This document shows positions 1,225-39,500 of a stretch of 39,500 bases of DNA, in pieces (within the stretch, counting starts at the first letter, position 1; each line of letters opens with the position of its first letter). Source of the stretch: an uncultured Fimbriimonadaceae bacterium (GTDB lineage Bacteria; Armatimonadota; Fimbriimonadia; Fimbriimonadales; Fimbriimonadaceae); the NCBI GenBank assembly GCA_964583465.1, contig CAZOVP010000005.1:165296-204795 (forward strand), read 5' to 3'. Made by a program: the position numbers and the translations under genes. Below the pieces are notes generated by a model. The model searched no databases, was not told where the DNA came from, and worked only from the letters and a program-made list of their open reading frames with translations.

Positions 1225-2183
1225 AGCGATCCAGACGCCAACGCATGGCGTACCTTTTTGATATTGAGGATGTGCGCGGCATAAGTCTTTGCAAACAAAT
1301 GATGTCCCTTGCCATCCGCTACGTAATAGAGGTCATCGGTTTTTAACGGATGAATGGCAGCCTTGATGCTCTTGAGCCCGGGCGAACCAATGGGGCCTGG
1401 TGGGAGCCCAAAATGAAGATATGTATTGTAAGGCGAGGGGACCGTTTTCACGACTCCTGGTCTCAGAACTTGCCATTTTTGCAGGGCATATAAAACTGTG
1501 GCATCGATCTCGAGTCGCATATTTTTTTGCAACCTGTTTTCAATTATTCCGGCGATATGTTCGCGATCAGAATCTCCCGAAGCTTCAAGCTCCACGAGTG
1601 AAGCTATGGTCAAGATTCGCTTGAGATCAGCTCCCGCAGGGAGGATTGGCATGACCTTCTTTTCAAAGGTTTGCATTTGCATTTCTACGACTTTTTCCGC
1701 GGGAGTGAGTGGCGGAATGTTATAAGTATCTGGGAAAAGCATCCCTTCTTTGCCGTGAGCCTTGGCCGCATCAATATAATCCTGTGCCGAACAGACCGAT
1801 TTTTCTTCAAGCCTGGAGGCAACCCGAGCAATCCACCAGCCTTCTGGAATTCTGACAAGGAGATTCACAGGGCTTTTGAGCGCGTAAGCGATTTCGCTCG
1901 TCGTCATTCCCGGGTGAAATTGGTATGTGCCAGCCGATACGTCTGTTGGAACACGCCGCAAGTTGAGCATCATTTTCGTGGCAAAGGCATTTCGAACAAT
2001 ATGTTCTGATTCCAGCCTTTCGAGAGCTTTGTTGAGGTGAATTGGAGATTCAAACCTTAGATAAACATTTGGGCCTTTGGCAAGTGGGGAAGCTTCTTGA
2101 AACGTTGAGGCGATAAAAATGCCCAGAGCTAAAAAGATGGTGGCCAAAACAACGGCGCAACCGGTGCGTCCACTACGAGCCAT
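1221..2183 (-). CDS. mltG: Endolytic murein transglycosylase MltG (YceG family)
   Basis: N-terminal membrane anchor, then the YceG-like domain with the conserved C-terminal motif LYYVADGKGHHLFAKTYAAH. Lies immediately downstream of ruvX, which is the conserved yqgF-yceG pairing. Confidence 0.85.
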   Translation of the reverse strand: MARSGRTGCAVVLATIFLALGIFIASTFQEASPLAKGPNVYLRFESPIHLNKALERLESEHIVRNAFATKMMLNLRRVPTDVSAGTYQFHPGMTTSEIAYALKSPVNLLVRIPEGWWIARVASRLEEKSVCSAQDYIDAAKAHGKEGMLFPDTYNIPPLTPAEKVVEMQMQTFEKKVMPILPAGADLKRILTIASLVELEASGDSDREHIAGIIENRLQKNMRLEIDATVLYALQKWQVLRPGVVKTVPSPYNTYLHFGLPPGPIGSPGLKSIKAAIHPLKTDDLYYVADGKGHHLFAKTYAAHILNIKKVRHALASGSL

Positions 2184-3428: not shown

Positions 3429-3504
3429 GGGGGCGTAGCTCAATGGCGAGAGCACCTGCTTTGCAAGCAGGGGGTTAGGGGTTCGAGTCCCCTCGCCTCC
3501 ACCA
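3429..3504 (+). tRNA. tRNA-Ala (anticodon TGC), CCA encoded
   Basis: 76 nt cloverleaf: acceptor GGGGGCG/CGCCTCC with G3:U70, D-loop AGCTCAATGG, anticodon loop CTTTGCAAG (TGC), T-arm GGTTCGAGTCC, discriminator A then CCA. Confidence 0.9.
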
Positions 3505-8994: not shown

Positions 8995-10347
8995 TCAGTG
9001 CAAACTTGGAAATGTATATGATTTCCGAACTTGCTGCAAGGGGTAGCCAGACTCGCTCGAATAACCTCTGCTGAATTTGTTAAGAAAGAAGTCGTATCTG
9101 CCAGGCTTTTTGAACCTAAATGTAACATCAAGGCTCTTTCCATCCGAGGCAAATACAGTCTTCTTTGTCACTTCATAAGTATCCGGTGTGATGACGAGTC
9201 CTCTCGATGTCTTCTGCATAGGGCGGTCAAACTCAAGGTGAATTGTAACCTGACCCTCCGAATCCGGCTTCGATGCAGTCAAAGATTTCAGCTTGGGACA
9301 TCGCTCCAAGATCAGTTTCGGATTCTTATAGAGCCTTTCGAGAACGGGTTGAAGCTTCGCGATACGTTCCGAAAGGGGCGCGTTAGAACCTGATTCAGCA
9401 ACCAGAGCGTCGGTTATGTCTGACTCCCATAAGAACCCTTGGCTGCGGTGTTCCAGCATATTTACCTCCACCAATTGGGGATAGTGAATCCTCAGAATGG
9501 CATTTTCCGCAGCTCTTGTAAAGGTTTCAAAGAGCATAACTTGAACGTCCCCATAAGCGTTGAGTGCCAAAGTGGATTTGGTTAACCTGAAGAGTGGCGC
9601 TCCCAACTTTATGAAATCCTTCCTTTGAGCAACAACGGGATTTACATATGCGTGACTGAATTCGTGAAGAATGAGCCCCAAATTGTCGTCACTGTAGACC
9701 GGAATCCCTTCGCTGTCAAACTCACCTGCTCCAAGCACAGGGGTCATATCTACCGTATCGTTCAAATGCCGAAAACTGACGCCGTAATTGGCCCCACCAG
9801 TGAGCAAGCCAACGATGACGTAAGAATCTTTGTTCGGCGCATTGCCATAGAAACCCTTCAGCCACTCTCCTACAGGCCGGCGACGTAGCAAGCTCTCCAT
9901 GCTCTGCGTGGCTTTACGATAGTATTCATCTTCCGACTTCAAAAAGCCTGCAAAGTTGGTGTCGCGAGCGAAATCTGCTAGGAGTGGCAAAAACTTCTCG
10001 ACGTCTTTCGGCTTCCAGGTTCGTTTCCAATCATCTGGATGGTTCCCGGGAATCAACTTTGGGTTCAAGGCATCAGTGATATGCACAGCCAGCCAAGGTA
10101 CAGAGTCAAATCCAATGCCAGACTCATCACGAAGCTTGCTCGCCATCTTGACCGCGGGGTGATCCTTGGCCGACCGGAAATAAGCGTCAACTCGATCGGA
10201 GTAAGGGCTCTTGCTTGAACTTTGGTTGAACTCCATCGCACCTTGCAATCGAAAAATACACGAAAGGAGTTCGACTCGCGGATCTATTCGAACCGAGATA
10301 GGTTGGGACAGTTGTAGCGCAATCGCTCCGATAGCCAGAGTCAACAT
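8995..10347 (-). CDS. Secreted HExxH-motif protein (putative zinc metallopeptidase-like; DUF4932-like)
   Basis: Signal-peptide-like N-terminus. HEFSH motif in LGLILHEFSHAYVNP with downstream Glu/Asp candidates. Confidence 0.45.
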   Translation of the reverse strand: MLTLAIGAIALQLSQPISVRIDPRVELLSCIFRLQGAMEFNQSSSKSPYSDRVDAYFRSAKDHPAVKMASKLRDESGIGFDSVPWLAVHITDALNPKLIPGNHPDDWKRTWKPKDVEKFLPLLADFARDTNFAGFLKSEDEYYRKATQSMESLLRRRPVGEWLKGFYGNAPNKDSYVIVGLLTGGANYGVSFRHLNDTVDMTPVLGAGEFDSEGIPVYSDDNLGLILHEFSHAYVNPVVAQRKDFIKLGAPLFRLTKSTLALNAYGDVQVMLFETFTRAAENAILRIHYPQLVEVNMLEHRSQGFLWESDITDALVAESGSNAPLSERIAKLQPVLERLYKNPKLILERCPKLKSLTASKPDSEGQVTIHLEFDRPMQKTSRGLVITPDTYEVTKKTVFASDGKSLDVTFRFKKPGRYDFFLNKFSRGYSSESGYPLQQVRKSYTFPSLH

Positions 10348-10374
10348 TCTTACAATGTACCAAATTTGGTACGA

Positions 10375-11049
10375 TTATGTCAACCGGAACAGCAATATTC
10401 GTGCTGAAGCCCCAACTATTGAGGGTGAGTAAGCATGGACTTCCCCGTCTGAGACATAAAAGGTTTCGCCCTCTTGGACTTCTAAGGACTCCGCCCCGAT
10501 TTTGACTTTGGCGAACCCACTCAACACATATCCGAATTCGGCACCTGGATGAGATCTAAGTTCGGTTGGGCTGTCAATCTCAACAATTCCACTAATGAAG
10601 CCAGCATTTGAAGGAATGTTTTGGAACATCATGAGATGGTTGGTTTCAGCCAAACCAGGCTCAGAGACCCTTCCTTCTATCGGGCCATTAACCAGCCCAT
10701 CCAGCTCATACCACTCATCATCCGCTTGTCGATGTACTTTCGAGAGAGCAACGATTTCTGGCTTGGCAAGCCTTTCGACATGGAGATTGAGCGCCCGGCA
10801 AACCTTCTCAAGGGTAACGGGCCGGCATCCTTTTCCTTGCTCCAATGTGACGATCGATGTTTTACTCACCATCGCCATTGCAGAAAGCTGTCGGATCGAT
10901 AGTCCACTGTTCTTTCGATGATCGCGAAGCCTTTGTCCCAATTGTTCGTGCGACACGCTCCCCAAAATCTCCTTCAGATAGCGTTCGGATTTCAATGGAT
11001 CGGGCGTAGGGCGCACAATCTCATTATGAACCTCACTCAAAGAGCACAC
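10375..11049 (-). CDS. XRE-family HTH plus cupin-domain transcriptional regulator
   Basis: HTH_3-like segment LRDHRKNSGLSIRQLSAMAMVSKTSIVTLEQGK, then a C-terminal cupin beta-barrel (GAEFGYVLSGFAKVKIG...GETFYVSDGEVHAY). Confidence 0.75.
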   Translation of the reverse strand: MCSLSEVHNEIVRPTPDPLKSERYLKEILGSVSHEQLGQRLRDHRKNSGLSIRQLSAMAMVSKTSIVTLEQGKGCRPVTLEKVCRALNLHVERLAKPEIVALSKVHRQADDEWYELDGLVNGPIEGRVSEPGLAETNHLMMFQNIPSNAGFISGIVEIDSPTELRSHPGAEFGYVLSGFAKVKIGAESLEVQEGETFYVSDGEVHAYSPSIVGASARILLFRLT

Positions 11050-11438
11050 TGCCCCGCATTGGTTTCAAGACGTGTGGTCGAATAGTCGTTTCCGTAGCGC
11101 GGTGAAGCTTCTCAAAGGGCAATCTTTGCTTGAAGTTTAAAAATCGTACCTAAGAATCTCCACCAGAATTCACACATTCGCCAAATCTTTTACGACGGCA
11201 ATAGCTCAGTGAGCACGCCATTCAAAACTGCAAACAGCTTGCTGTTTGGGCTCAATCTCCGCATAGGTTCCTACAGACATCGTCTTGCTTTGTTGTAGTC
11301 AATAATTCAAACAAACAAGTCGCTTAAGTTTGGAAAATTACTCGGTCAACCTAAATTCGATGAAGTGGAGATCTCGATGAAAGCCATCTTTGGGTCTGAA
11401 CATTTCGGGTGTAACTGCAAACATCAGACTGGTTCAAT

Positions 11439-12755
11439 TCAGGGCATTTTAAGATCAAATAATTGGATTCTTTCGAGGCCATCAAGATTTAGTTTTGAAT
11501 TTGAAAGCTCGTCAAGATGATCGCAAAGAACGGATTCACCATCGTTGGCATAAACATCTAAGGCGGTGGCATCAATAAAAATCTGGAGCGAAAATAGAGG
11601 TCTCCGAATCGCGACAGAGCGACGGTTTGTTTTGAGCACCTTCGTCATGGGATCATACTGAATGGTAAACCCAAAAAGTGAAAGGTTGAGAGGTTTGTTT
11701 GCTGGTACGTGGGCCAAAATTTCGCACGGGTTCTGCAAGGAATCCTTTGTTGTCGGTTGGCGCAAAGTTTGGAGCTCTTTAACCGGTCGTAATATCACAT
11801 TTTGATCTTTGGAGATGCTCATTTCGGAAGGCAAAATGAGATAGCCGTTCCAAGCTTTGTGGTTAGAAGTGTTGACCCAAGCAGAGTAAAGCGCTCTTCG
11901 ACCAGTATTCTGAAAAACCTGCGACGCATAAGAGCCTTCTGCAAGGAAACCGCGAGTTTTGTATTCAAACTTTTCGCCAACGATTTGACCTACAAAGGCT
12001 TCGACCCGGCCTCGAACCGAAACCAAAAGAACCCAGTCTCTTCCAATTTGGATAAGGTTTGGACATTCGATATTTCCGACATCACTGTCAGGATAAGTGA
12101 AAAACACGCCAGCTTGCTTCCAACTCAAAAGGCTATCGGTCTGAGCCTTGTAAAGTGCGACGATGCCACGTCCCATCCTCCCTCCCCCTGTAAGCAAATA
12201 GGCTGTGCCCTTGTACCAAAATCCAAATGGATCTCTCCATTCAGCAAAAGACTGATCGTTATCGTTTTGCGTGAGCATATGGGAATGCTTGCTCCATCGA
12301 ATCAGATCGTCAGATTCGGGAGTTGCTGCCCATTGTTCGGGCTCTCGCTTAGAGCTAATACTTGTGTAAAAGATAACAGGTGATCCAGATTTTGTCATCA
12401 TATTTGAACCTGAAAAGATATGATCTTCAACAAGCTCAGGGCTGGGATAAAGAGCAATTGGCAAATGTTCCCAATGAACCAAATCTAGACTGCGAGCATG
12501 CCCCCAATGCATGTGATTCCATTGCGAATCGAAAGGATTGTGTTGGTAGAACATGTGGTACCAACCCTTGAAAAAGATCGGCCCATTAGGGTCGTTCATC
12601 CACTGAGCTGCTGGCGTGAAATGGATCGAGGGTCGCGATAAATCTTCTCTGGCTTCTTTGGCTCGTGATTGGACAGCTCGATTCGCTTGCTCTTGGCTTT
12701 GATCCATGACATTCAGGCAAAAACTGAAGACAGCGATACCCAGCAGTGCTCCCAT
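11439..12755 (-). CDS. Glycoside hydrolase family 32 (beta-fructofuranosidase/levanase-like), membrane-anchored or secreted
   Basis: GH32 catalytic motifs WMNDPNG (nucleophile), FSGS, WRDP (RDP) and ECPNL (acid/base), with an N-terminal hydrophobic segment. Confidence 0.85.
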   Translation of the reverse strand: MGALLGIAVFSFCLNVMDQSQEQANRAVQSRAKEAREDLSRPSIHFTPAAQWMNDPNGPIFFKGWYHMFYQHNPFDSQWNHMHWGHARSLDLVHWEHLPIALYPSPELVEDHIFSGSNMMTKSGSPVIFYTSISSKREPEQWAATPESDDLIRWSKHSHMLTQNDNDQSFAEWRDPFGFWYKGTAYLLTGGGRMGRGIVALYKAQTDSLLSWKQAGVFFTYPDSDVGNIECPNLIQIGRDWVLLVSVRGRVEAFVGQIVGEKFEYKTRGFLAEGSYASQVFQNTGRRALYSAWVNTSNHKAWNGYLILPSEMSISKDQNVILRPVKELQTLRQPTTKDSLQNPCEILAHVPANKPLNLSLFGFTIQYDPMTKVLKTNRRSVAIRRPLFSLQIFIDATALDVYANDGESVLCDHLDELSNSKLNLDGLERIQLFDLKMP

Positions 12756-12781
12756 GATCGCCGGAGGTTACCTGGGCGAGC

Positions 12782-13963
12782 TCAACGATGACCGTTGATT
12801 ATGAGGTTTGCAAAGTTAAGGAGCCCACCAATTTTGCCTCGGTAGTTGGGGTTTTGGAGTGAGATATCGACTGAGGTGTTTTTGATTGCGTTGCTGATCC
12901 AACTTGACGCTCCAAGAGCAGTTGAATGGCGAAGAAGCTCCGCAACCGAACCAGCGACAAAGGGAGTTGCAAACGAAGTTCCGGACCAAACTCCTAGTCG
13001 CCCCGTCCAATCAGTGCTTCCGATTGTGACCGCGGGCGCACTAGCTAAGCAAGTTCCATCCCAGTTGCTAAATGAAGCTTTAGCGTTGTGATCATCAAGT
13101 CCGCCGACACAAATGGCGGCCCGAATTCGGGCTGGTGAGCACGAATCGTTGACCCCGTTGTTTCCAATTGCGGCAACGACAGTTGCATCATGTAAATCGG
13201 CCCAATCGAGCACATCTGTCATGCTAGGAATTCGAGTGAGCGTGCCCAAACTAATATTGATGACCTCAGCACCGTTGTTTATGGCGAAAACGATCCCTTT
13301 TATAAGCCTCCAAGTCGTTGCGAAACCGTCAGAATCGGCAACCCGAACTGGAATCAGAAGGCTCTGAGGGGAGATTTGATTGATGAGCCCAGCAACCATG
13401 GTGCCGTGACCCGTAAGATTATCGAATATTCCATCAAGGTTAGAATCGGTTTGATGTGGAATGTCCCAGGCCGGATAGTTGGCTTCAACATAGTTGGCAG
13501 TCGCGACGACTTTTCGCCAGAGCGGAAAAGCCTTTGGAGAAATGCCTGAATCGAGGATAGCCACTCTCACTTGGCGCCCTGGCTCGTTTGCAATCGCTGA
13601 TTGCCAATTGATCTGGTTCAATGCTTGGGTGTTGTAGGCCAATCCTGCATCTCGGCCTCCAACAGCTGGGAGTGTCGAACCTTTTTGGCCTTCCGGGGTG
13701 CCGAGGTCAATGTTGTCCTCTGTCCAAATGACTAACGGGCTGGAAGCCATATTGGCTCGAATTCGAATCGCCCTGGCTTCGGATCCGAAATCAAACAGAA
13801 CAAATGGGGAGTTTTGTGCTGCATCCAGAAAAACGACATCGAACGAGTGAACGACATCGCTCGGTGCTACTCCATCGGCCAGACGACACAGGATCTTAGT
13901 TTGAGCGAAACAAGACAGGCTTAATAATGAGAAAGTGATTGAAGCAAAAAATTTCGATTTCAT
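12782..13963 (-). CDS. Secreted subtilisin-like serine peptidase (S8 family)
   Basis: Catalytic triad contexts VAILDSGI (Asp), HGTMVAG (His) and GTSFATPFVAG (Ser). Signal peptide MKSKFFASITFSLLSLSCFAQ, and that start ATG overlaps the CHAT gene stop as ATGA (13960..13963). The track ORF extends to 14029. Confidence 0.85.
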   Translation of the reverse strand: MKSKFFASITFSLLSLSCFAQTKILCRLADGVAPSDVVHSFDVVFLDAAQNSPFVLFDFGSEARAIRIRANMASSPLVIWTEDNIDLGTPEGQKGSTLPAVGGRDAGLAYNTQALNQINWQSAIANEPGRQVRVAILDSGISPKAFPLWRKVVATANYVEANYPAWDIPHQTDSNLDGIFDNLTGHGTMVAGLINQISPQSLLIPVRVADSDGFATTWRLIKGIVFAINNGAEVINISLGTLTRIPSMTDVLDWADLHDATVVAAIGNNGVNDSCSPARIRAAICVGGLDDHNAKASFSNWDGTCLASAPAVTIGSTDWTGRLGVWSGTSFATPFVAGSVAELLRHSTALGASSWISNAIKNTSVDISLQNPNYRGKIGGLLNFANLIINGHR

Positions 13964-16551
13964 TTCGAGAATCCAGAGTAGTGAACGAACGAACCCCAAT
14001 AATAAGGATGATCGTTTTCGTCGCGACAAATACGTTGTCCTGTCAAAAACGCTTCAGAAACCGTATTTTTCTCAGCGAGAGTCTTGTAAAAGGCCCCATA
14101 CATGAGCGGCGCCACAGAATCATCGAGTTCCCAGAGACTAGCAAGCACATTTTTTGTGCCACATGAAATAAAAGCACGTGAAAGACCATTTGGTTCCCAA
14201 TTGATCTCCGAAGACAGCAATCCCGTATCGCACGCGCTAAGAGTGGCAAGGTCAGTTTTCAACCCACTTTTCGAGATTTCGAATGCAAAAAGTGGCCCAT
14301 CCACTAATTGAATCGAGGACAACATCGGGTTAGATTTTTTGTGCTGAGCATGTCCGAGAACATGAACCGCTGAAAAGCTTGAATCAGCAAGATTTCGAAA
14401 TTCACTTTTTGTTTGAATGATTGTTGATTCTTGAAAATATCCGGAAATTTGATCGATTTCTTTTTGGGTGTGTTGGAGCCCCTCGGTGTTGCCAAGAATG
14501 ATGAGACATCGATCTAAGTGCAGAGGTTCAGTTTTGCTATCGAAACTTGGGTGCATTGCAATTCTCCAGCATCGCTCGTCGCCGCTCGCCCTTGCCAAAG
14601 CGTTCCAGGGCAAACTCCAACCCACCGAGTCCGGACAGATCACGGTGCTTTGTGATTGCCAAAGAAAGGCAAATGGCTCGGAAATTTGATTCATTAATCG
14701 TTGTACTTGAAACTTTGACTGGGTTCCCTTTATCGGAGCTGCACTCAGTTCAAAACTCAGCCACTTTAATAATCGCATGAGCTCATTAGTTTTCATAGAA
14801 AGGGTTTTGCAACGATCATTTGTAATGACTCTCAAAAGATCCTTGCCAGCCCAAAAGATATGGCAATCACTCGATCGTGCCTCTAATTTTTTGACGCTGA
14901 GATTCAGGTCAAAATGAAGATCAGCCAGCCGGAACGATGTTGGCGCATCTAGGGCTTCTTGTTGAAAATCTATTCGACGAGACCCGCGTGGAAAATCGTT
15001 ATGATTGTGACTCGCAAGATCTGCAACTTGCTGAATCTTTGCTTGTGTCAATGATGACAACAATTTCCTATCCAATAATTCGGTTAGAAGCAGAGTCGAC
15101 CGGAGCTGCTCGATGACTTCACGAGCTTCTTTTATTCTTTTGGGTGTTCTTGAATCAAAAAGGTATTCCAAATAGTGGCTAATTCCTTCTGATTTGTCCT
15201 GAAGGCTGTAGCTTAACCCCGTTTCAGTGCCCTTTGATGCTCGATCAATGAGAATGAGTTGCATCATTTTTCGATAATGCTTTATAGGCTTAAGTGAATA
15301 TTTTGCAGCAAGAAATTCACATTTCCAAGCGAGTCCAACGAAACCATACTTTTTGATGAGTCTTGAGGCAATGGTGAGGCTTTCGGGTTCAATTTCGGCC
15401 AAAGCAAGTGCTACTAAGGCTGAAAAGTAAGGGCTCGATTTGGCAAGTGTTCTGGCATCTTCCAGCCTTTTGCGTCCACGCTTTTTTCTTCCTTCAGCGA
15501 TGTCAATTTTTGCCTGCTCTAGCATCGTCAGGCTGAGCCAAGTTTGATTTTTCAACTTGCGGTAGATCGAAGCTGCAATTTTTAAAGATTTTTGAGCCAA
15601 ATCTTGCTGATCTAGCCTGGCTTGACACTGTCCGAGGCCGAGCCATAAGTGAGCCTGGTGAAGCGGAATTGTTTGCAGCCCTTCCGCGATAGTTGACTGG
15701 TATTGAATCGAGGCTTCACGAAATAGATTGAGCTGAAAATAGGTATCGGCCAGGTACTCGCAAACCCGTGCTTTGTCCACAGAAGAATTTTCAAATTTTA
15801 AGGCAAGATTTTGAAATCGTTGCAATGCTAACTCGCATTGATTCATGCAATTGTTTGCTAGCCCGAGATTGATTTCTGCAAGATTGGCTAGGTATTTGGC
15901 ATCCAAATCATTTGCCAGTGATATTGCTTCCTGGGCATATTCTAAAGCCCTTTTGGGATCGCCACCAAAAATGTGAGTTGAAGAAAGTGCCGTCAAAGCC
16001 GAGGCATATTCAAGTTGAAAGTGAGAAGACTTCAGGTGAGCCACGGCCATTCCGAGCACCTTCCGCGCGCGAAATGAATCATCTCGATAGACATAGGCAT
16101 TCCCCAGATTCAGCCAAACGCGGCCAGCCGATCCAGGTTCGTGCAGTTCTAAGAGTTGAGATGAGAGTTTTTCTGCCAGATTGTCGGCCTCATCCATTAA
16201 CCCTTGTCTGGCAAGGCTATCGACCGCACCAATTGAAAAGGAAGCCTTTTGGTGTGGATCTGTTGCGAGTTCTCCGCTTTTCAAAAAAGCATGGGCGCTC
16301 GATTTCCATTGGCCCTGAAGTCGTAAATAAATTCCACCTGCTCGATATGCCCAGTGGCGATCATCGCAAGCCCTGAGAACAGTTCTCCAATGTTGCCCGA
16401 GTGCGCTTAGCTTTTCGTTATCTGCCCCGTAAAAGGACAAGACTCTTAGACAAAATGCTTCTCCAAGTCCTTCAATCTTTCCACTCAATTCAATTGACGA
16501 ACCAGACTCAAGGCGATCAAGAATCTCCGCTTTCGTCATACATGACCTCAA
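13960..16551 (-). CDS. TPR-repeat protein with C-terminal CHAT (caspase-like) protease domain
   Basis: N-terminal two-thirds are TPR-like helical repeats. C-terminus has the CHAT His/Cys dyad context (VHVLGHAQH ... LATLSACDTGL) and the characteristic end motif PYYWGSFVHYSG. No signal peptide. Confidence 0.85.
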   Translation of the reverse strand: MRSCMTKAEILDRLESGSSIELSGKIEGLGEAFCLRVLSFYGADNEKLSALGQHWRTVLRACDDRHWAYRAGGIYLRLQGQWKSSAHAFLKSGELATDPHQKASFSIGAVDSLARQGLMDEADNLAEKLSSQLLELHEPGSAGRVWLNLGNAYVYRDDSFRARKVLGMAVAHLKSSHFQLEYASALTALSSTHIFGGDPKRALEYAQEAISLANDLDAKYLANLAEINLGLANNCMNQCELALQRFQNLALKFENSSVDKARVCEYLADTYFQLNLFREASIQYQSTIAEGLQTIPLHQAHLWLGLGQCQARLDQQDLAQKSLKIAASIYRKLKNQTWLSLTMLEQAKIDIAEGRKKRGRKRLEDARTLAKSSPYFSALVALALAEIEPESLTIASRLIKKYGFVGLAWKCEFLAAKYSLKPIKHYRKMMQLILIDRASKGTETGLSYSLQDKSEGISHYLEYLFDSRTPKRIKEAREVIEQLRSTLLLTELLDRKLLSSLTQAKIQQVADLASHNHNDFPRGSRRIDFQQEALDAPTSFRLADLHFDLNLSVKKLEARSSDCHIFWAGKDLLRVITNDRCKTLSMKTNELMRLLKWLSFELSAAPIKGTQSKFQVQRLMNQISEPFAFLWQSQSTVICPDSVGWSLPWNALARASGDERCWRIAMHPSFDSKTEPLHLDRCLIILGNTEGLQHTQKEIDQISGYFQESTIIQTKSEFRNLADSSFSAVHVLGHAQHKKSNPMLSSIQLVDGPLFAFEISKSGLKTDLATLSACDTGLLSSEINWEPNGLSRAFISCGTKNVLASLWELDDSVAPLMYGAFYKTLAEKNTVSEAFLTGQRICRDENDHPYYWGSFVHYSGFSK

Positions 16552-17065
16552 TTGCAGGCATCAGATAAGCCCGGCCATCGCCTTCAAACAAAAGCTCGCT
16601 TTCAGAAAGATCTTTCGCGACAAAATGAAAATACTTGTCATCTGTCAGAGCAATCTCTTGGCTCTGGTGGGATACCTTGGACACAAATTCTGGAGCTCGA
16701 CCGGTGATGTCGAATCCTTGCGACAGGGGCTGAACTAAGATTCGAATTTCAAATCCTTCTTCTTCATATAGACACTGAAAATCTTGAGCTTGCCGACGTG
16801 CTCCTTGTCCCATCCAAACAAATCTCGCAAGTTTCAGTGTTCTTGGTGCAAATTCAGCGATAGCTTTGGCCCGAGCAACAGATTCGGCGGGCGGTGTATA
16901 CATTTTGACTTGGGCCGAGAGAAAAACGAGGGACAAAAATTTCAAAGACTCTTGACAATAAGAGCAATTTGCAATATGGCTCTTGGGGTCTGGCTGACCA
17001 TTTGTTTCAGCGAGGTCGACAAGTTCGACCCAAAATTTCTCACACCCGTTTTTCATCGATTTCAT
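16517..17065 (-). CDS. Soluble zinc-finger (ZAS) anti-sigma factor, RsrA-like, with extra C-terminal domain
   Basis: HxxxCxxC motif (HIANCSYCQE, H30/C34/C37) plus an upstream Cys8, mirroring the RsrA ligand pattern. No transmembrane helix. Lies directly after the ECF sigma gene, and its 3' end overlaps the CHAT gene start. Confidence 0.6.
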   Translation of the reverse strand: MKSMKNGCEKFWVELVDLAETNGQPDPKSHIANCSYCQESLKFLSLVFLSAQVKMYTPPAESVARAKAIAEFAPRTLKLARFVWMGQGARRQAQDFQCLYEEEGFEIRILVQPLSQGFDITGRAPEFVSKVSHQSQEIALTDDKYFHFVAKDLSESELLFEGDGRAYLMPAIEVMYDESGDS

Positions 17066-17106
17066 ACTAAAAATGCACTAAACATGAACAAAAATACATT
17101 CGCGTT

Positions 17107-17673
17107 TCAAAAATAATCAGATTCCTCTAAGAGAAGTTTGAGTTTGGCAAGGCATCTTGCTCTTGTCGGGCCCAATGCTCCTAGTGGAATATTGAGTTTT
17201 TGGCTCGCCGATTCATAGTTGGAGCCCTCCTGAAAATAAAGCTCCAGAAGTAGCGGAGTGCAGCGCCCGCCCAGGGATTCCACTGCGCTCCGTAAGACTC
17301 TGGCTCGTTCGGCTTCTATGGCGGATTCCTCAGCGGAGCTTTCTTCGTCGGCGATGAGGAGCACGAGATCTTCTTCGATAACGGGTCGAAGTTTCTTCAG
17401 CCTCGCAACTCTTAGACTCGTGCGAGCAGCGGTCACGGCAAGCCATTTTGGGATCACGAGCCCAGACTCAATGCGATTTCGACTGCTAAAGAGAGCCTGA
17501 AAAGTCTCAATCATGACGTCTGAAGAATCATCATCATCGAGTCCATATCGGCGGGCAATGGAAAAAATATAACCAGAAAACGATTCGACAAGCTCACTCC
17601 ACGCTCTCGAATCGTTCTTTTGAATCTTCGTCAAGAGTTGTTTGAGATCAGTAGTTTTAGATCCTCGCAACAT
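17107..17673 (-). CDS. ECF-type RNA polymerase sigma-70 family factor
   Basis: Region 2 (YIFSIARRYGLDDDDSSDVMIETFQALF) and region 4 HTH (SASQKLNIPLGALGPTRARCLAKLK). About 188 aa, typical of ECF sigma factors. Confidence 0.8.
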   Translation of the reverse strand: MLRGSKTTDLKQLLTKIQKNDSRAWSELVESFSGYIFSIARRYGLDDDDSSDVMIETFQALFSSRNRIESGLVIPKWLAVTAARTSLRVARLKKLRPVIEEDLVLLIADEESSAEESAIEAERARVLRSAVESLGGRCTPLLLELYFQEGSNYESASQKLNIPLGALGPTRARCLAKLKLLLEESDYF

Positions 17674-17700
17674 CTTAATTCAAAAGTTTACTCGTAGAGC

Positions 17701-19164
17701 TTACTTTTTCGGCCTTTCCGACGAACCCAAGGGGAAAAGCTTATTAACTTTGTGCTCTCGGTTCATTATTTTGAGACCCTCAGTTACGATATCTATATGC
17801 TGACTCGAAATATCATTCAATTCCGGCAAGTCTTTTTCAAGATCATAAAGTTCTATTTTTTGTGGTTGAGAGTTAAGGTCGGGCTTAATGAGCTTGTAAT
17901 TTCGAAACATCACGGCTTGCATGTTGCTCGCTTCGGGGTATTCAAAATAGATGAAGTGTCGTGTTGAAACGTGCTTCCCTTTGAGTAGTGGCAAATAGCT
18001 TCTTCCATCGTGAACTGGAGCTGTTGAGCCCACGAGATCACATACAGTCGCAAAAAAGTCGTAGGCCACAACAGGTTCATCAATTTTCAATCCTGCGGGA
18101 ATGTTTTTGGGCCAACGAGCAACCATCGGGACTCGTATTCCTCCCTCATAGAGGCTCATTTTGCCTGAGCGAAGCTCACCATTAGACTGGAAGAACGTAC
18201 GATCAACTCCACCGACGTTAGTAGCACCGTTATCGCTCGTAAAAATGAACAGAGTGTTATCGAGTTGCCCAGTTGATTTCAAAGTAGCGACCAATCGACC
18301 AACGGAGTCGTCCAGATAAGCAATCATAGCGGCGTAAGTTGCTCGGGGGCGAGCACAAGGCAGGTAGCCATTTTGTCCAAGATAAGGCTCTTTGTCCCAG
18401 TCTTGCGGAAACTTATTAACCCATTCTTTGGGAGCTTGTAAGGCCACATGTGGCAAAGTCGATGCAAAGTAAAGAAAGAATGGTTTGGACTTATCTTTGG
18501 AGCTGACAAATTTTATGGCGTTTTCAATAAGCTTTTGGCCACTGAAAACCTGCCCCAGGTACTTATCTTCATAGTCGGATTGATTTGCCCATCCGACTTC
18601 AATCTTCTGGTGCGCCGAAAAAACGGGATTCCCGAGAAGATCAACATCGCGCCCATTCCAAAGATAGGGTGGGTAATAATTGTGAGCCCGACGCTGGCAC
18701 AAATATCCGTAAAAAAAGTCGAACCCGTGATCTAAGGGGCTCTCCCCAGGCTGAGTGCCTCCTAACCCCCATTTGCCGACGAGACCTGTACGATATCCTC
18801 GAGACTTTAAGACCTCTGCTACTGTGGTTTCTTGCTGAGAAATGGGCATTTGCCCTTCCTTATCGTTAGGGCCAAACCCACCAAACTCCCTGTTACCGCG
18901 AATATCTGCATGACCTTGGTGCTTTCCAGTAAGTAATGAATATCGCGTTGGCGCACAGACAGGGCTCGCAGAATAGGATCTTGTAAAAAGTGCACCTTCT
19001 TTTGCAAGCTGATCGATATTTGGAGTTTTGATTTTGGTTTGGCCATAGCACGCTAGTTCTCCATAGCCAAGGTCATCTGCCATAACGTAAACAATGTTGG
19101 GAAGTGAAGGTTTTGCTTCGTTAATTTGGCAGAGAGAAAATATCACTCTCTGAGTATGAATCAA
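17701..19164 (-). CDS. Sulfatase (formylglycine-dependent arylsulfatase family)
   Basis: N-terminal IVYVMADDLGYGEL, and the C-x-P-x-R formylglycine motif in SPVCAPTRYSLLTGK. The 5' end at 19164 is a TTG, forming TTGA with the upstream stop. No clear signal peptide with this start. Confidence 0.85.
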   Translation of the reverse strand: MIHTQRVIFSLCQINEAKPSLPNIVYVMADDLGYGELACYGQTKIKTPNIDQLAKEGALFTRSYSASPVCAPTRYSLLTGKHQGHADIRGNREFGGFGPNDKEGQMPISQQETTVAEVLKSRGYRTGLVGKWGLGGTQPGESPLDHGFDFFYGYLCQRRAHNYYPPYLWNGRDVDLLGNPVFSAHQKIEVGWANQSDYEDKYLGQVFSGQKLIENAIKFVSSKDKSKPFFLYFASTLPHVALQAPKEWVNKFPQDWDKEPYLGQNGYLPCARPRATYAAMIAYLDDSVGRLVATLKSTGQLDNTLFIFTSDNGATNVGGVDRTFFQSNGELRSGKMSLYEGGIRVPMVARWPKNIPAGLKIDEPVVAYDFFATVCDLVGSTAPVHDGRSYLPLLKGKHVSTRHFIYFEYPEASNMQAVMFRNYKLIKPDLNSQPQKIELYDLEKDLPELNDISSQHIDIVTEGLKIMNREHKVNKLFPLGSSERPKK

Positions 19165-20399
19165 TTGTATCGATCAACTGAAATCTGAGCAGGTGGTTTA
19201 CTCCCTTCGAGAATCTCAACCATCATTTGGCCGGTGATCGGAGCAAGACTGACCCCCATCATTCCATGGCCTGTTGCAAAGAATATTCCAGGGGCCCTAT
19301 CTGTTCCTCCCAAATAAGGCATTCCATCTGGTGAACAGGGGCGCAATCCAGACCAAACTTGACCCTCTGACACTGAATCCGCGCCGGATTTGAACTTTGG
19401 TAAGAATGTGCTCAAACCTGTCTTCATTCCTCCCAGCCGGACCAAATCGATAGACAAATTCCACTCCCCAAGTTCCATTGTTCCTCCAATTCTCACTCCA
19501 CCGACCATTGGTGTGACCGCGAGTCGGGCTTCTTTTAGCAGTAAGGGCCTTGTGAGTTGAGGAACATTTTCAGTCAAAGAAAAGCTCATCCCCTTGCCCG
19601 GCTGCAGTGGCAGGTTCACTCCGGCCGTTTTTGCTAATTTGCCAGAGGCCGCACCAGCTGCCACGATTATCGCATCCGCATTTAGAGTTTGATGATCCAA
19701 TTGAACTGCTGGTTGAGAACCGGCTACTAACGAAGTTACTTTGTTCGACCACAAAAACTGGACACCGCGCTCCATCAAGGCCAGCTTGAGATGAGCCACA
19801 AAGAGGTGGGGTGACACATGAGCGTCCTCGGGAAATTCGACTCCTCCCAGGACATCAGCACCTAGGTCTGGTTCCAAAGCGAAGATTTCATCTCCAGAAA
19901 TGACTCGTGCTTCCATTCCTAATCTGTGTGCATGCAGAGCAACCTCCGCTTCTTCTTCTATCCCTTCATGCGTATGACAGAGCATCAGCAGACCACGCTC
20001 TTGAAACCCGAATGGGTTATCCCAGTCCTTCGAAAATTGACGAAATAGCTCCCTACTTTTGCGATGCAGATTCAAAAGAATTGGCGCACATTGTTCGACA
20101 TGGGATTCATTGCAATGAGCTTGAAACTGCAGGCACCAAGACGCTAGTCCTTGATCTAAAGACGGTTTAATTCGAAATGGACTGTCCCGCTTCATCATCA
20201 TTTTGAGCCCGGTCAGCACCATCCCCGGCGATGCCAATGGCACGAAATGGCTCGGAACAATAATTCCAGAATTGCCTAGGGAGCACCGATCCCCTTCCAT
20301 TGGGCCAGAGTCTATAAGAGTGGCTTCATGGCCAGCCTGGGTCAGATACCAAGCGCAACAAAGCCCAACAACTCCGGCCCCAACAACAAGAACACGCAT
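19161..20399 (-). CDS. FAD-dependent oxidoreductase (DAO family, D-amino-acid dehydrogenase-like)
   Basis: N-terminal dinucleotide-binding motif MRVLVVGAGVVGLCCAWYL...LID. The rest matches the DAO fold. Confidence 0.75.
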   Translation of the reverse strand: MRVLVVGAGVVGLCCAWYLTQAGHEATLIDSGPMEGDRCSLGNSGIIVPSHFVPLASPGMVLTGLKMMMKRDSPFRIKPSLDQGLASWCLQFQAHCNESHVEQCAPILLNLHRKSRELFRQFSKDWDNPFGFQERGLLMLCHTHEGIEEEAEVALHAHRLGMEARVISGDEIFALEPDLGADVLGGVEFPEDAHVSPHLFVAHLKLALMERGVQFLWSNKVTSLVAGSQPAVQLDHQTLNADAIIVAAGAASGKLAKTAGVNLPLQPGKGMSFSLTENVPQLTRPLLLKEARLAVTPMVGGVRIGGTMELGEWNLSIDLVRLGGMKTGLSTFLPKFKSGADSVSEGQVWSGLRPCSPDGMPYLGGTDRAPGIFFATGHGMMGVSLAPITGQMMVEILEGSKPPAQISVDRYN

Positions 20400-20449
20400 T
20401 TGAGATAAGAATTTACACTTCTAATGAAACAGGATTTGTCGCACCAGGA

Positions 20450-22423
20450 TCAACTCCAAACCCGGATCAGGCTGCACCCATGGGATCGAATGTTGAGATT
20501 CACAGATCCGGTGGCTCGTCCCATGTCCCTTTGACGCCACAGGTCGCGAACCCTTTTCGCAGGTTTTGTGCCGAGCTCTGACCATTTGTAAGACTTTGAG
20601 ACGGCTGAATCGCCAAGGTTAAAGATTCCAATGGCCATGCTTCCGTCTTCTAGGTTCCGCCCCCAAACTTGAATGTCTCCCTTCATACTGATTCGGTGCG
20701 CGGGCTTACCCAAAGGATCTTGATTAACGGCGATGACTTCGTCGTTCGTTAAAAGGTTCAGAGTAAATTCATCGAGCCTCGTCATATCGCATCCAATAAG
20801 AAGCGGTGATGATAGTAGCGACCACAGCGAAATGTGAGTGTATTGCTCGCTTGGAGTGAGTCGCGTCGGATGAAGTTGTGGCCCCCATCCCACCCATCCC
20901 ACGACGAGCATATCGGGGTCATTCCAATGGCCGGGTCCTGCAAATTTCTCGTGCCCATCTTGGCTGAAGCCAATTCCGCTCAAACTTTCCCACGAATCGG
21001 TGATGTCACCCGTTGTTCGCCAGCAATTTCCTCCAACCGATTCTCCCCACTTCCAAACATCACCCATTCCATATTGACACAAGCTATAAACGATATCGCG
21101 GTTGACCTTTTTGAGTGCTTGTTGCATCACTTCATATGGTTTTTTAAGATTGTCCAGCCCTTCTGGTTTCTGAATTTGGGAATAACTGCACCAATCATAT
21201 TTGATGTAGTCAAACCCCCAATCGGCCATTTTCTTAATGTCCTGTTCCTCGTGGCCATAAAAAGCTGCGTATCCACCACAAGTTGTCGGCCCAGGGCTAG
21301 AGTAAATTCCGGCTCGTAGTCCGTAACTGTGAATCTTATCTGTCAAGGCTTTCATGTTAGGAAATTTCTTGTTAGTCAAAATCTCCCCATTTTGGTCCCG
21401 AGTGGCTCCACCGACGATCGGGTCATTGGAGTTTGGAACTATCGACCAGCAATCGTCGATATTGATGTACTGCCAACCGTGATTAATGAGCCCCGAGTTG
21501 ACAAATGCTTTCGTCGCATCAAGAACTTTTTGTTCATCGACAGCATTGGCAAAACAGTTCCAGCTATTCCATCCCATGGGCGGTGTCAATGCGAGCTTGT
21601 CACCGATGACAAGACTCAATTTTCGAGTTGAACGTCCCATGGCATTTTTTGCAACGAGAGTAAGTTCATAGGTTCCATTGGCAGGCGTGGTGCCCGAAAT
21701 CACTCCGTTTGAAGACAACTTGAGCCCGTCTGGCAACTTACTTACGGAATATGTCATGGGTTGCTGACCAGTCGCTGGAATCTTCCAAACAAATTCGCGA
21801 TTCGCTCTCGCGCCAACTCGTTTCGGCCCATTAATTCGAGGTGCTTTTGGTGGTTTTGGAGTCAAGATATAAGGTTTCTCGATAGAGGGAACCATTATTA
21901 TTGGTTTTTTGCCAGAGTAATCGATTTGTGGCATTGCCCAATCTGCGTGATCATAATCGATTTCGTCGCCACCATTGCCGGCTTTAAGAGTTAGCAATTT
22001 GACACCTTTGAGAGGAACAGAAACTTTGATAGGGCCATCACCTTTCTTCAATTTTCCTGAATTAAACTTTTCAACCCCGTCGCAAAACACGTGAAAGTCG
22101 ACATCCCCATTGTCATTCGGAATTTCGTCGTCGACTCCAACAAAAGCCGTGAAAGCGATGGCCCGACCATCCAGGGCAATCTTAATATTTGAGACAGCAT
22201 GTGTTCCGATCCCATTTCCAAATCCTTGCCCCGCAATTCGAATCGGGTTGCCATCGACAGACTTATTTCTTTGCGCCGAACCCCAACCTTGTCGAATATG
22301 AGTCAAATCAAGATCGGATAAGAAGATCGATTTGACTTGTTGAGTGGCAAGTAGAGCGAGAGGCAAAAACATTATCAACATTGTTGCTTGAAAGTCTTGC
22401 CAATGGCAAGTGAGAGCCCTCAC
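20450..22423 (-). CDS. Secreted GH27 alpha-galactosidase / alpha-N-acetylgalactosaminidase with N-terminal NPCBM carbohydrate-binding domain and Ig-like domain
   Basis: NPCBM signatures (GTHAVSN, VGVDDE, FHVFCDG, DHADWA). Ig-like segment YSVSKLPDGLKLSSNGVISGTTP. GH27 motifs PPMGWNSWN, IDDCW and KYDWC. The true start is probably the internal Met at MLIMFLPLALLA (about 22381). Confidence 0.8.
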   Translation of the reverse strand: MRALTCHWQDFQATMLIMFLPLALLATQQVKSIFLSDLDLTHIRQGWGSAQRNKSVDGNPIRIAGQGFGNGIGTHAVSNIKIALDGRAIAFTAFVGVDDEIPNDNGDVDFHVFCDGVEKFNSGKLKKGDGPIKVSVPLKGVKLLTLKAGNGGDEIDYDHADWAMPQIDYSGKKPIIMVPSIEKPYILTPKPPKAPRINGPKRVGARANREFVWKIPATGQQPMTYSVSKLPDGLKLSSNGVISGTTPANGTYELTLVAKNAMGRSTRKLSLVIGDKLALTPPMGWNSWNCFANAVDEQKVLDATKAFVNSGLINHGWQYINIDDCWSIVPNSNDPIVGGATRDQNGEILTNKKFPNMKALTDKIHSYGLRAGIYSSPGPTTCGGYAAFYGHEEQDIKKMADWGFDYIKYDWCSYSQIQKPEGLDNLKKPYEVMQQALKKVNRDIVYSLCQYGMGDVWKWGESVGGNCWRTTGDITDSWESLSGIGFSQDGHEKFAGPGHWNDPDMLVVGWVGWGPQLHPTRLTPSEQYTHISLWSLLSSPLLIGCDMTRLDEFTLNLLTNDEVIAVNQDPLGKPAHRISMKGDIQVWGRNLEDGSMAIGIFNLGDSAVSKSYKWSELGTKPAKRVRDLWRQRDMGRATGSVNLNIRSHGCSLIRVWS

Positions 22424-39440: not shown

Positions 39441-39500
39441 GGTCGGGGCAGCGGGATTTGAACCCACGACCTCTTACCCCCCAGATAAGCGCGCTACCAA
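39441..39500 (-). tRNA. tRNA-Pro (anticodon GGG), 3' portion, truncated by the window end
   Basis: The reverse complement ends ...GTGGGTTCAAATCCCGCTGCCCCGACCA: T-arm, acceptor 3' strand TGCCCCG, discriminator A, CCA. Anticodon stem CTTAT/GTAAG with loop CTGGGGG (GGG, G37). D-loop CCTGGTAGCGC-like. The 5' acceptor and D-stem lie beyond position 39500. Confidence 0.7.

Follow-up and report, generated by a model that had tools for sequence, protein, structure and literature searches.

A conserved cassette of an ECF sigma factor, a zinc-type anti-sigma, a TPR-CHAT protein and a predicted exported subtilase, and its possible role as a protease-gated sigma switch

The window analysed here, a 39,500-nucleotide stretch of an uncultured Fimbriimonadaceae bacterium (assembly GCA_964583465.1, contig CAZOVP010000005.1, positions 165,296 to 204,795 of the forward strand), contains four consecutive minus-strand genes. 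They encode a sigma factor of the extracytoplasmic function (ECF) type, a soluble anti-sigma of the zinc-binding anti-sigma (ZAS) type, a cytoplasmic protein that joins a tetratricopeptide repeat (TPR) region to a caspase-like CHAT domain, and an S8 subtilase with a predicted signal peptide (Table 1). The adjacency of the four genes is not due to chance; they form a conserved and co-evolving unit that is real and widespread, and apparently undescribed. We propose, with a probability of roughly 0.5, that this unit is a self-contained protease-gated ECF sigma switch, in which the TPR-CHAT protein would act on the anti-sigma and free the sigma factor.

The order of the four genes recurs in many independent contigs with different flanks. 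A word-indexed search yielded three full-length relatives of the CHAT protein (36-37% identity), and their contigs share the order sigma, 180-aa protein, CHAT and S8 within unrelated flanks. Pattern scans added two Armatimonadota metagenome-assembled genomes (MAGs), L006 and L007, the latter of Fimbriimonadaceae. They also added L010 on a contig from a lake, L011 on a contig from soil that breaks off inside the CHAT gene, and two CHAT-S8 fragments (L012, L013); the L numbers are our labels for loci. Hidden Markov models built from the four protein alignments and run over all loci confirm this layout, sigma-anti-sigma-CHAT-S8, which is referred to as type A. The same order with tight junctions is found in the window, L001, L002, L006, L007, L010, L075, L076, L078 and L080, at least 10 independent contigs, and truncated type-A loci are L003, L011-L013, L077 and L079. 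The earlier note on this DNA had described the four genes as a compact unit and had named a lack of synteny in related genomes as refuting it; the synteny holds. In a comparison of nine complete loci, the pairwise identities of each of the four proteins correlate positively with those of every other (r = 0.67-0.88, highest for CHAT-S8), and the cassette is therefore inherited as a unit.

The anti-sigma family gives a measure of how many such cassettes exist. An exhaustive profile search retrieved 323 cluster representatives at E <= 1e-3, 178 of them at E <= 1e-10 and nearly all of 170-190 aa, whereas the word-indexed protein search gave 8 anti-sigma clusters. Five members were sampled across the score range; four lie in complete cassettes (L075, L076, L078, L080), and the contig of the fifth (L079) ends right after the sigma and anti-sigma genes. 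The sole taxonomically labelled relatives of the cassette are Armatimonadota MAGs, which leaves the assumption that relatives would be found in the Planctomycetes-Verrucomicrobia-Chlamydiae group unsupported. The type-A flanks differ at every locus and include genes for S-adenosylmethionine (SAM) synthetase, SAICAR synthase, QueC/QueE, isocitrate dehydrogenase, glycoside hydrolase family 20 (GH20) and diadenylate cyclase. No conserved gene is present downstream of S8 across the type-A loci. On this ground the GH32 gene, which had been suggested as possibly co-transcribed, is excluded as a fifth component and lies outside the module, although the gap of 26 nt between it and the S8 gene allows read-through.

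The junctions of the cassette are as tight as had been described. All four open reading frames (ORFs) are present on the minus strand, in their longest forms at 17107-17673, 16517-17065, 13960-16551 and 12782-14029, and together with the domain searches they confirm the four gene identities. The 41-nt gap between sigma and anti-sigma, the ATGA overlap and the spacing to GH32 are likewise confirmed on the window sequence. The reported overlap of the anti-sigma 3' end with the CHAT start also stands, whereas the reported length of 863 aa does not, being only that of the longest CHAT ORF, from a TTG at 16551. Comparison with orthologues places the true start at the ATG of position 16539, so that the protein has 859 aa and the genes overlap by 23 nt; by the same comparison the S8 gene starts at the ATG at 13963 and encodes 393 aa. 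In 7/7 type-A loci first examined, a GAGG Shine-Dalgarno sequence precedes the CHAT start, which is 23 nt ahead of the anti-sigma stop; among nine complete loci, seven show this 23-nt overlap and the other two overlap by 32 nt and 4 nt. The CHAT/S8 overlap is 4 nt in 6/9 complete type-A loci (0, +26 and -8 nt in the others), and all other junctions either overlap or have short gaps. The anti-sigma and CHAT genes are thus translationally coupled, and the gene overlaps imply one transcript for at least anti-sigma, CHAT and S8.

Table 1 Coordinates of the cassette, of its parts and of neighbouring genes in the window (AF2, AlphaFold2)
Feature	Position	Strand	Basis
ECF (group IV) sigma-70 family sigma factor, 188 aa	17107..17673	-	TIGR02937, orthologues
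Soluble two-domain anti-sigma, 182 aa: N-terminal ZAS-type helical domain and C-terminal beta-sandwich	16517..17065	-	profile, AF2
Zinc-ligand set C8...H30-x3-C34-x2-C37 (CHCC, ZAS motif)	16955..17044	-	alignments, codon positions checked
Anti-sigma G88-A89-R90 loop	16796..16804	-	conservation, AF2 model
Overlap of anti-sigma 3' end and CHAT start codon, 23 nt	16517..16539	-	ATGACGAAAGCGGAGATTCTTGA
Cytoplasmic TPR-CHAT (caspase/separase-fold) cysteine protease, predicted, 859 aa	13960..16539	-	Pfam, AF2, Foldseek
N-terminal all-alpha TPR solenoid of CHAT protein, residues 1 to ~490	15070..16539	-	AF2, Pfam
Low-confidence variable linker of CHAT protein, residues 485-556, holding G519...R522	14872..15087	-	AF2 pLDDT, alignment
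CHAT protease domain (predicted), residues 559-855	13975..14865	-	dyad H730 (14350-14352), C770 (14230-14232)
ATGA, CHAT stop overlapping S8 start	13960..13963	-	sequence
S8 subtilase, predicted exported, 393 aa; D138, H186, S330; signal peptide residues 1-21 (13901-13963)	12782..13963	-	Pfam, alignment
NPCBM/melibiase	20450-22423	-	
DAO oxidoreductase	19161-20399	-	
Sulfatase	17701-19164	-	
GH32	11439-12755	-	
HTH (helix-turn-helix)-cupin regulator	10375-11049	-	
DUF4932	8995-10347	-	

The product of the first gene is an ECF-type (group IV) sigma factor as judged from its sequence. It matches the sigma70-ECF model TIGR02937 with 53.5 bits (cutoff 42.9) over residues 24-180 of 188 and Pfam Sigma70_r2 weakly, and its closest solved chains are those of the ECF factor SigE. 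Its orthologues in the cassettes share 35-64% identity.

The second protein is a soluble anti-sigma composed of a divergent ZAS-type N-terminal domain and a C-terminal beta-sandwich. The window protein has no match in Pfam, even at E <= 5, or in NCBIfam, and for this reason its identity is drawn from family profiles. These match the Bacillus subtilis ZAS anti-sigma RsiW over the HxxxCxxC helix (E = 0.0015 and 4.9e-4) and, weakly, DdvA and RslA (0.56 for RslA); zf-HC2 is the sole recurrent Pfam match in the family, weak and confined to eight of 53 members (best E 0.0025). The four CHCC ligands (C8, H30, C34 and C37) do not vary among 7 type-A copies and reach 75-85% conservation in a set of 141 representatives. 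The position of the fourth ligand, C8, near the N-terminus and upstream of H-x3-C-x2-C, in a gene adjoining that of an ECF sigma, is as in the ZAS class. The description as a soluble, HxxxCxxC-bearing anti-sigma is thus borne out by the ligands and by the lack of any hydrophobic segment of transmembrane (TM) grade (maximum KD19 0.96). The label 'RsrA-like' does not fit, since the protein has two domains in its 182 residues, including a confidently modelled beta-sandwich, in a ChrR-like architecture, and RsiW is its best sequence match.

In the AF2 model, the N-terminal part of the anti-sigma (residues 2-70) forms 3-4 helices of low per-residue confidence (pLDDT 48-65), and residues 78-169 form the beta-sandwich with pLDDT of 80-95. 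The fold of this C-terminal domain differs from that of ChrR and is unclassified. Between the strands 78-85 and 95-102 the model places the G-A-R loop with R90, the most conserved residue of the family: it is kept in 98% of the 141 representatives, above the zinc ligands, is the sole strictly invariant residue in 53 diverse members, and is retained in permuted relatives of the cassette as well. The R90 loop is, by inference, a candidate site of protease recognition or cleavage.

The third gene encodes a cytoplasmic TPR-CHAT protein with an intact His/Cys dyad, for which protease activity is predicted. It matches Pfam CHAT with 94.7 bits (cutoff 24, 9e-27), and also TPR_12 (30.8 bits) and TPR_MalT. 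The AF2 model (pLDDT 82, pTM 0.75) contains about 28 helices in residues 1 to ~490, with pLDDT mostly 80-95, followed by a linker and the alpha/beta CHAT domain. This solenoid is presumed to be a sensor or a substrate-docking scaffold. The linker falls below pLDDT 50 at residues 485-494 and 508-556, and its G-x-x-R pair (G519...R522) is kept in 10/11 type-A CHAT proteins. The top Foldseek matches of the model are Csx29 of Craspase (8e-14), separase (3e-11) and the anti-sigma DdvA (6e-11). Absence of the catalytic His/Cys had been named beforehand as a finding that would speak against the proposal; H726, H730 and C770 are present in 39/39 complete CHAT domains of cassette-linked loci and invariant in the alignments. 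The protein has no signal peptide and no TM-grade hydrophobic segment (maximum KD19 1.26).

The fourth protein is a subtilase with an intact catalytic triad and a Sec signal peptide, and both export and catalysis are predicted from these features. It matches Pfam Peptidase_S8 with 97.2 bits (1.4e-27); its triad (D138, H186 and S330) is invariant in a four-way alignment and present in type-B relatives, described below. The n-h-c signal peptide, MKSKFFASITFSLLSLSCFAQ with T as the following residue, is conserved across orthologues and type-B relatives, in agreement with the earlier description of a signal-peptide-bearing S8 protease. A pro-like N-domain precedes an invariant KGSTLPAVG-x-R segment. 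Segments with a small residue followed by Arg, located in loops or linkers, occur in all three non-sigma proteins (anti-sigma 16796-16804, CHAT 14974-14985, S8 13652-13684). These G-x-(x)-R segments could be cleavage or pseudosubstrate sites of an Arg-directed caspase-fold protease, or a coincidence. They keep formally possible the idea that CHAT processes the S8 pro-domain, which had been raised as a question; it is unlikely on topological grounds, because CHAT is cytoplasmic and S8 is Sec-exported.

Our proposal for the cassette combines these features into a switch. In the resting state, the zinc-bound helical domain of the anti-sigma would sequester the sigma factor, and its beta-sandwich would dock on the TPR-CHAT protein, with the G-A-R loop and its R90 perhaps in or near the protease site. 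A cytoplasmic signal sensed through the ~490-residue TPR solenoid would activate the CHAT domain, which would then cleave the anti-sigma, the remnant probably being cleared by housekeeping proteases. The freed sigma factor would direct RNA polymerase to a regulon that includes at least its own operon and hence the exported subtilase. As the product of what is always the last operon gene, the subtilase would be a co-expressed output.

This proposal is in line with previous results on related proteins. In Craspase, the cytoplasmic TPR-CHAT protease Csx29 cleaves Csx30, an inhibitor that binds the ECF-like CASP-sigma (PMC10028731). In DdvA, a TM helix links a CHCC-zinc anti-sigma to a TPR-CHAT domain, and self-cleavage by the latter is the proposed start of the release of the ECF sigma DdvS (PMC11506125). 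A similar logic underlies the CalpL/CalpT/CalpS and SAVED-CHAT/PCaspase/PCc-sigma cascades (bioRxiv 10.1101/2023.06.23.546230). Release of the sigma factor by CHAT is the best supported model because of translational coupling, co-evolution, the shared cytoplasmic location, the conserved Arg loop and these precedents. The earlier note had placed the two proteases under the control of the sigma/anti-sigma pair; from the Csx29 and DdvA precedents and the anti-sigma/CHAT coupling, we judge the reverse direction more likely.

Several points weigh against the proposal. The link between CHAT and the anti-sigma is inferred from gene coupling, co-evolution and analogy, and R90 could be purely structural. 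The N-terminal domain of the anti-sigma, to which sequestration of sigma is assigned, is modelled at low confidence in a protein that matches nothing in Pfam. Csx29 is activated only with Cas7-11 and target RNA, and separase only upon release from securin or cyclin; the cassette comes with no identified activator or signal for CHAT. In the window, 27 nt separate the sulfatase stop codon from the start of the sigma gene, so that read-through from upstream genes is possible, and no ECF -35/-10 pair could be derived. The peptide theme discussed below is extrapolated from a sister clade, and type-A loci, including the window, have no association with oligopeptide transporter (Opp) genes. Finally, the ZAS anti-sigma might by itself suffice as a redox switch, and CHAT and S8 would then belong to the regulon and nothing more.

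This last reading, an ordinary ZAS switch that is possibly gated by thiol oxidation and in which the TPR-CHAT protein and the subtilase are regulon outputs with no part in sigma release, is a possible, if tentative, alternative. It agrees with the CHCC ligands, which correspond to the C11, H37, C41 and C44 pattern of RsrA, with the frequent presence of target genes downstream in ECF operons, and with the apparent co-transcription of the four genes (overlapping junctions, no predicted terminators). However, the zinc ligands are lost in 15-25% of representatives and in the cassette L029, which keep CHAT and S8. The beta-sandwich and R90 are more conserved than the zinc site and co-occur with CHAT in every locus examined, and the anti-sigma/CHAT overlap suggests stoichiometric co-production of the two proteins. 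Moreover, the characterised sigma-linked TPR-CHAT proteins all act upstream of sigma release (PMC10028731, PMC11506125). Of the redox gating that had been suggested, the zinc ligands are indeed present in the window, whereas their absence from some cassettes means that such gating is not universal; oxidation at the zinc site could still act as a further input.

The relatives of the cassette in a sister clade bear on what the proposed protease-gated switch might be used for. In soil metagenomes, CHAT relatives with 22-35% identity are likewise accompanied by the partner genes, but in the permuted order sigma, CHAT, ZAS-like protein (210-250 aa) and signal-peptide S8 (type B). L029 has sigma, zinc-less anti-sigma, CHAT and S8 (type C). 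A joint alignment reveals that the anti-sigma-like proteins of types A, B and C are homologous over their full length, the G-(A/V)-R loop and the beta-sandwich at the C-terminus included. CHAT proteins at a greater distance (L048-L063) have no partner gene at all, and the association is therefore specific to the cassette clade.

Type-B cassettes are embedded in Opp/Dpp-type oligopeptide ABC-transporter operons, which encode oligo_HPY ATPases, two BPD_transp_1 permeases and an SBP_bac_5 protein. Genes for these ATPases, permeases and SBP_bac_5 protein are directly adjacent in 10 type-B loci. They lie directly upstream of sigma in L021, L025, L028, L033, L039, L041 and L045; L017 and L018 have partial copies upstream, and in L042 and L043 they lie downstream of S8. 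In addition, L041 has an extra secreted pro-kumamolisin (S53) protease between CHAT and the anti-sigma, and an HD_5 (HD-GYP-like) gene follows S8 in L026, L037 and L045. Judging from the Opp and S53 genes that accompany the sister clade, the physiological theme is most likely regulated proteolysis outside the cell or the acquisition of peptides.

An extension of the proposed switch along these lines would be a so far unrecognised class of cytoplasmic receptor-protease signalling in diderm phyla (Armatimonadota, probably Acidobacteriota), in which peptides made by the subtilase would be imported by Opp and bound by the TPR solenoid, upon which CHAT would cleave the anti-sigma at the G-A-R loop and sigma would be released. 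We regard this extension as doubtful. If true, it would constitute an RRNPP-like peptide-sensing positive-feedback loop that runs through a separase/Craspase-type protease instead of a transcription factor.

Two further arrangements occur in the sister clade. In the variant represented by L042 and L043, the sigma gene is absent and the anti-sigma-like protein has a non-ZAS N-terminus. L043 carries an IS5-like transposase remnant upstream of the CHAT gene (1370-1717, plus strand). In view of this remnant, the two loci were dropped as evidence for a sigma-independent function of the beta-sandwich and CHAT; they are probably disrupted or rewired cassettes. The soil contig of L045 encodes, besides its type-B cassette, a 1,197-aa DdvA-like protein (13294-16887, minus strand) with two H-x3-C-x2-C motifs, a TM helix at ~175-197 and a TPR-CHAT region, and this gene lies directly downstream of another ECF sigma gene (16964-17356, minus strand). 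By the Rosetta-stone argument, this fusion suggests that ZAS anti-sigma domains and TPR-CHAT modules work together. DdvA-like anti-sigmas have been reported as confined to Myxococcota and one Comamonas (PMC11506125); the L045 fusion suggests a wider distribution.

A different role for CHAT, either as a non-proteolytic or securin-like partner (a co-anti-sigma or scaffold) or as a protease that cleaves sigma itself, and not the anti-sigma, to switch the response off, is unlikely. In its favour, PCaspase cleaves a sigma factor, PCc-sigma (bioRxiv 10.1101/2023.06.23.546230), a pseudosubstrate restrains separase (the PDB 5U1T family is among the Foldseek matches), and the G...R pair in the CHAT linker could be an autoinhibitory pseudosubstrate. 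Conservation of the dyad in all 39 domains argues against a purely structural role, and in the sigma alignment no conserved exposed Arg loop comparable to R90 of the anti-sigma was noticed.

An anti-phage or programmed-cell-death system, in which CHAT, and possibly S8, would be abortive-infection effectors armed transcriptionally by the sigma/anti-sigma pair, as in DdvS/DdvA-controlled or type III CRISPR-associated systems, is very unlikely. In its favour, Craspase, the SAVED-CHAT/PCaspase cascade and CBASS-linked systems do employ CHAT proteases (PMC10028731; bioRxiv 10.1101/2023.06.23.546230), PADLOC matches exist though weak (BovA 5e-7 to the CHAT domain, the generic 'subtilase' model 5e-14), and the flanks vary as noted. 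Against it, no type-A cassette has a Cas, CBASS, cyclase, nuclease, integrase or transposase gene next to it; what adjoins the cassettes are genes of metabolism or housekeeping (SAM synthetase, SAICAR synthase, QueC/QueE, isocitrate dehydrogenase, glycoside hydrolases). Flanking repeats were not found, and an exported S8 misfits an intracellular suicide effector. PADLOC-DB v2 gives no system match and no match to sigma or anti-sigma. The Csx29 model of NCBIfam (NF041237) scores 27.5 bits against a cutoff of 300, and no ORF of the window is long enough for Cas7-11, the longest in the 39.5 kb being the CHAT gene itself. The cell-death and conflict framing of the earlier note finds no support in view of the missing PADLOC system, the metabolic and housekeeping flanks and the position of type-B cassettes inside Opp operons.

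Scans of the window module for sigma-70 promoters and terminators gave nothing above shuffled expectation, with no intrinsic terminator or convincing promoter inside it. Of 12 type-A cassettes, 10 have a conserved 7-mer at a distance of 12-40 nt ahead of the sigma start codon, six times as TGTATCA and four times as its reverse complement TGATACA. The TGTATCA sites (TGTATCATC) are at 982-990 in L001, 1741-1749 in L002, 6829-6837 in L006, 986-994 in L007, 1886-1894 in L010 and 654-662 in L011; TGATACA lies within ~40 nt upstream of sigma in L075, L076, L078 and L080. Because its wobble positions are invariant and a stop codon lies between the 7-mer and the ORF in L007, the 7-mer is an element that acts at the level of DNA or RNA, perhaps a -10-like 'TATCAT' or an operator. 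The regions ahead of the sigma genes of the window (17674-17800) and of L079 lack it.

In many type-A cassettes, a divergent gene for a secreted protein lies immediately upstream of sigma; the window has none. DUF4382/DUF5666 proteins of 466-578 aa are encoded in L002 (223-1623), L075 (170-1600) and L080 (768-2504), and small secreted proteins in L006 (6369-6749), L007 (448-888), L010 (1405-1851) and L011 (152-535), all on the minus strand. The small proteins (126-148 aa) are mutually homologous in the four loci (phmmer 1e-21 to 1e-30) and have no Pfam match. The divergent secreted proteins could be regulon targets.

The window cassette lies inside a same-strand array of carbohydrate-utilisation genes (8995-22423, minus strand; Table 1), and the gaps of 26-27 nt on either side make read-through co-transcription with unrelated neighbours possible. 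Elsewhere the window carries a tRNA-Ala(TGC) at 3429-3504 (plus strand) and a tRNA fragment cut by the window end at 39443-39500 (minus strand). No further Rfam families were found in the window, and scans of the module for Rfam families, tRNAs and repeats gave nothing relevant.

The four-gene arrangement had not been recognised as a described system in the earlier note, and this agrees with the literature. In the accessible part of the literature no published description of a sigma / ZAS anti-sigma / TPR-CHAT / S8 neighbourhood was found, a terse annotation in the ECF Hub or in supplementary material being possible; the main text of the ECF reclassification paper does not mention CHAT or subtilase contexts. 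CHAT-controlled sigma release has so far been described only within CRISPR/CBASS immunity, in Craspase (2022) and DdvA (2024). If the proposed switch is real, the same logic exists as a free-standing module with hundreds of sequence clusters, in ordinary chromosomal contexts of poorly studied phyla, tied to an exported protease and, in the sister clade, to peptide import. The known forms of sigma-factor regulation would also gain a new type of soluble anti-sigma and perhaps a new ECF group. Moreover, the cassette offers a compact four-protein system for studying the activation and substrate of a stand-alone bacterial separase-like protease, with R90 as a candidate site.

Among known systems, the Craspase arm (Csx29/Csx30/Csx31/CASP-sigma) is similar in having a cytoplasmic TPR-CHAT protease beside an ECF-type sigma and a soluble sigma inhibitor whose cleavage relieves the inhibition (PMC10028731), and Csx29 is the best structural match to the window CHAT protein. 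In contrast to Craspase, neither the cassette nor its related loci contain Cas7-11/gRAMP, a CRISPR RNA (crRNA) array, Csx30 or Csx31, and the inhibitor, composed of ZAS and beta-sandwich domains, is not related to Csx30. The TPR region, at ~490 aa, is far longer, and it presumably detects its signal with no Cas protein involved. In addition, the exported S8 is an obligatory fourth gene, and the genomic context is housekeeping or metabolic instead of defence.

The DdvS/DdvA pair of Myxococcus xanthus also consists of an ECF sigma controlled by a CHCC zinc anti-sigma domain that is functionally joined to TPR-CHAT. Its proposed trigger is CHAT-mediated proteolysis of the anti-sigma (PMC11506125), and DdvA is among the top structural matches. 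However, DdvA is a single transmembrane polypeptide with a periplasmic dimeric TPR-CHAT and RseP-type intramembrane proteolysis, whereas the anti-sigma and CHAT proteins of the cassette are separate, soluble and cytoplasmic and have no TM segment. DdvA controls a CBASS/CRISPR island, and the cassette carries an S8 protease.

ChrR/RpoE of Rhodobacter, RsiW/SigW and RsrA/SigR share with the cassette the N-terminal H-x3-C-x2-C zinc domain and the gene position beside an ECF sigma. ChrR is likewise soluble with a beta-rich C-terminal domain, which is the sensor in ChrR. The cassette anti-sigma is neither single-domain as RsrA nor membrane-anchored as RsiW, and it has an obligatory CHAT partner. 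Cleavage of an anti-sigma by a signal-activated protease, with release of an ECF sigma, is also known from CalpL/CalpT/CalpS (type III-B) and DegS/RseP-RseA-sigmaE. The proteases there are Lon-SAVED, or a PDZ serine protease together with an S2P metalloprotease, whereas that of the cassette is a predicted caspase-fold cysteine protease, with no cyclic-oligoadenylate sensor domain or membrane step.

With RRNPP peptide signalling the likeness is by analogy only, in that a single operon of the sister clade encodes exported protease(s), an Opp importer and a TPR protein of the cytoplasm. The proteins are not homologous to Rap, NprR, PlcR or PrgX, CHAT with sigma/anti-sigma takes the place of an HTH domain or phosphatase as the output, no propeptide gene has been identified, and Opp is absent from the cassette type of the window. 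By analogy, the cassette would work like the Craspase arm and DdvA/DdvS, while being a member of neither.

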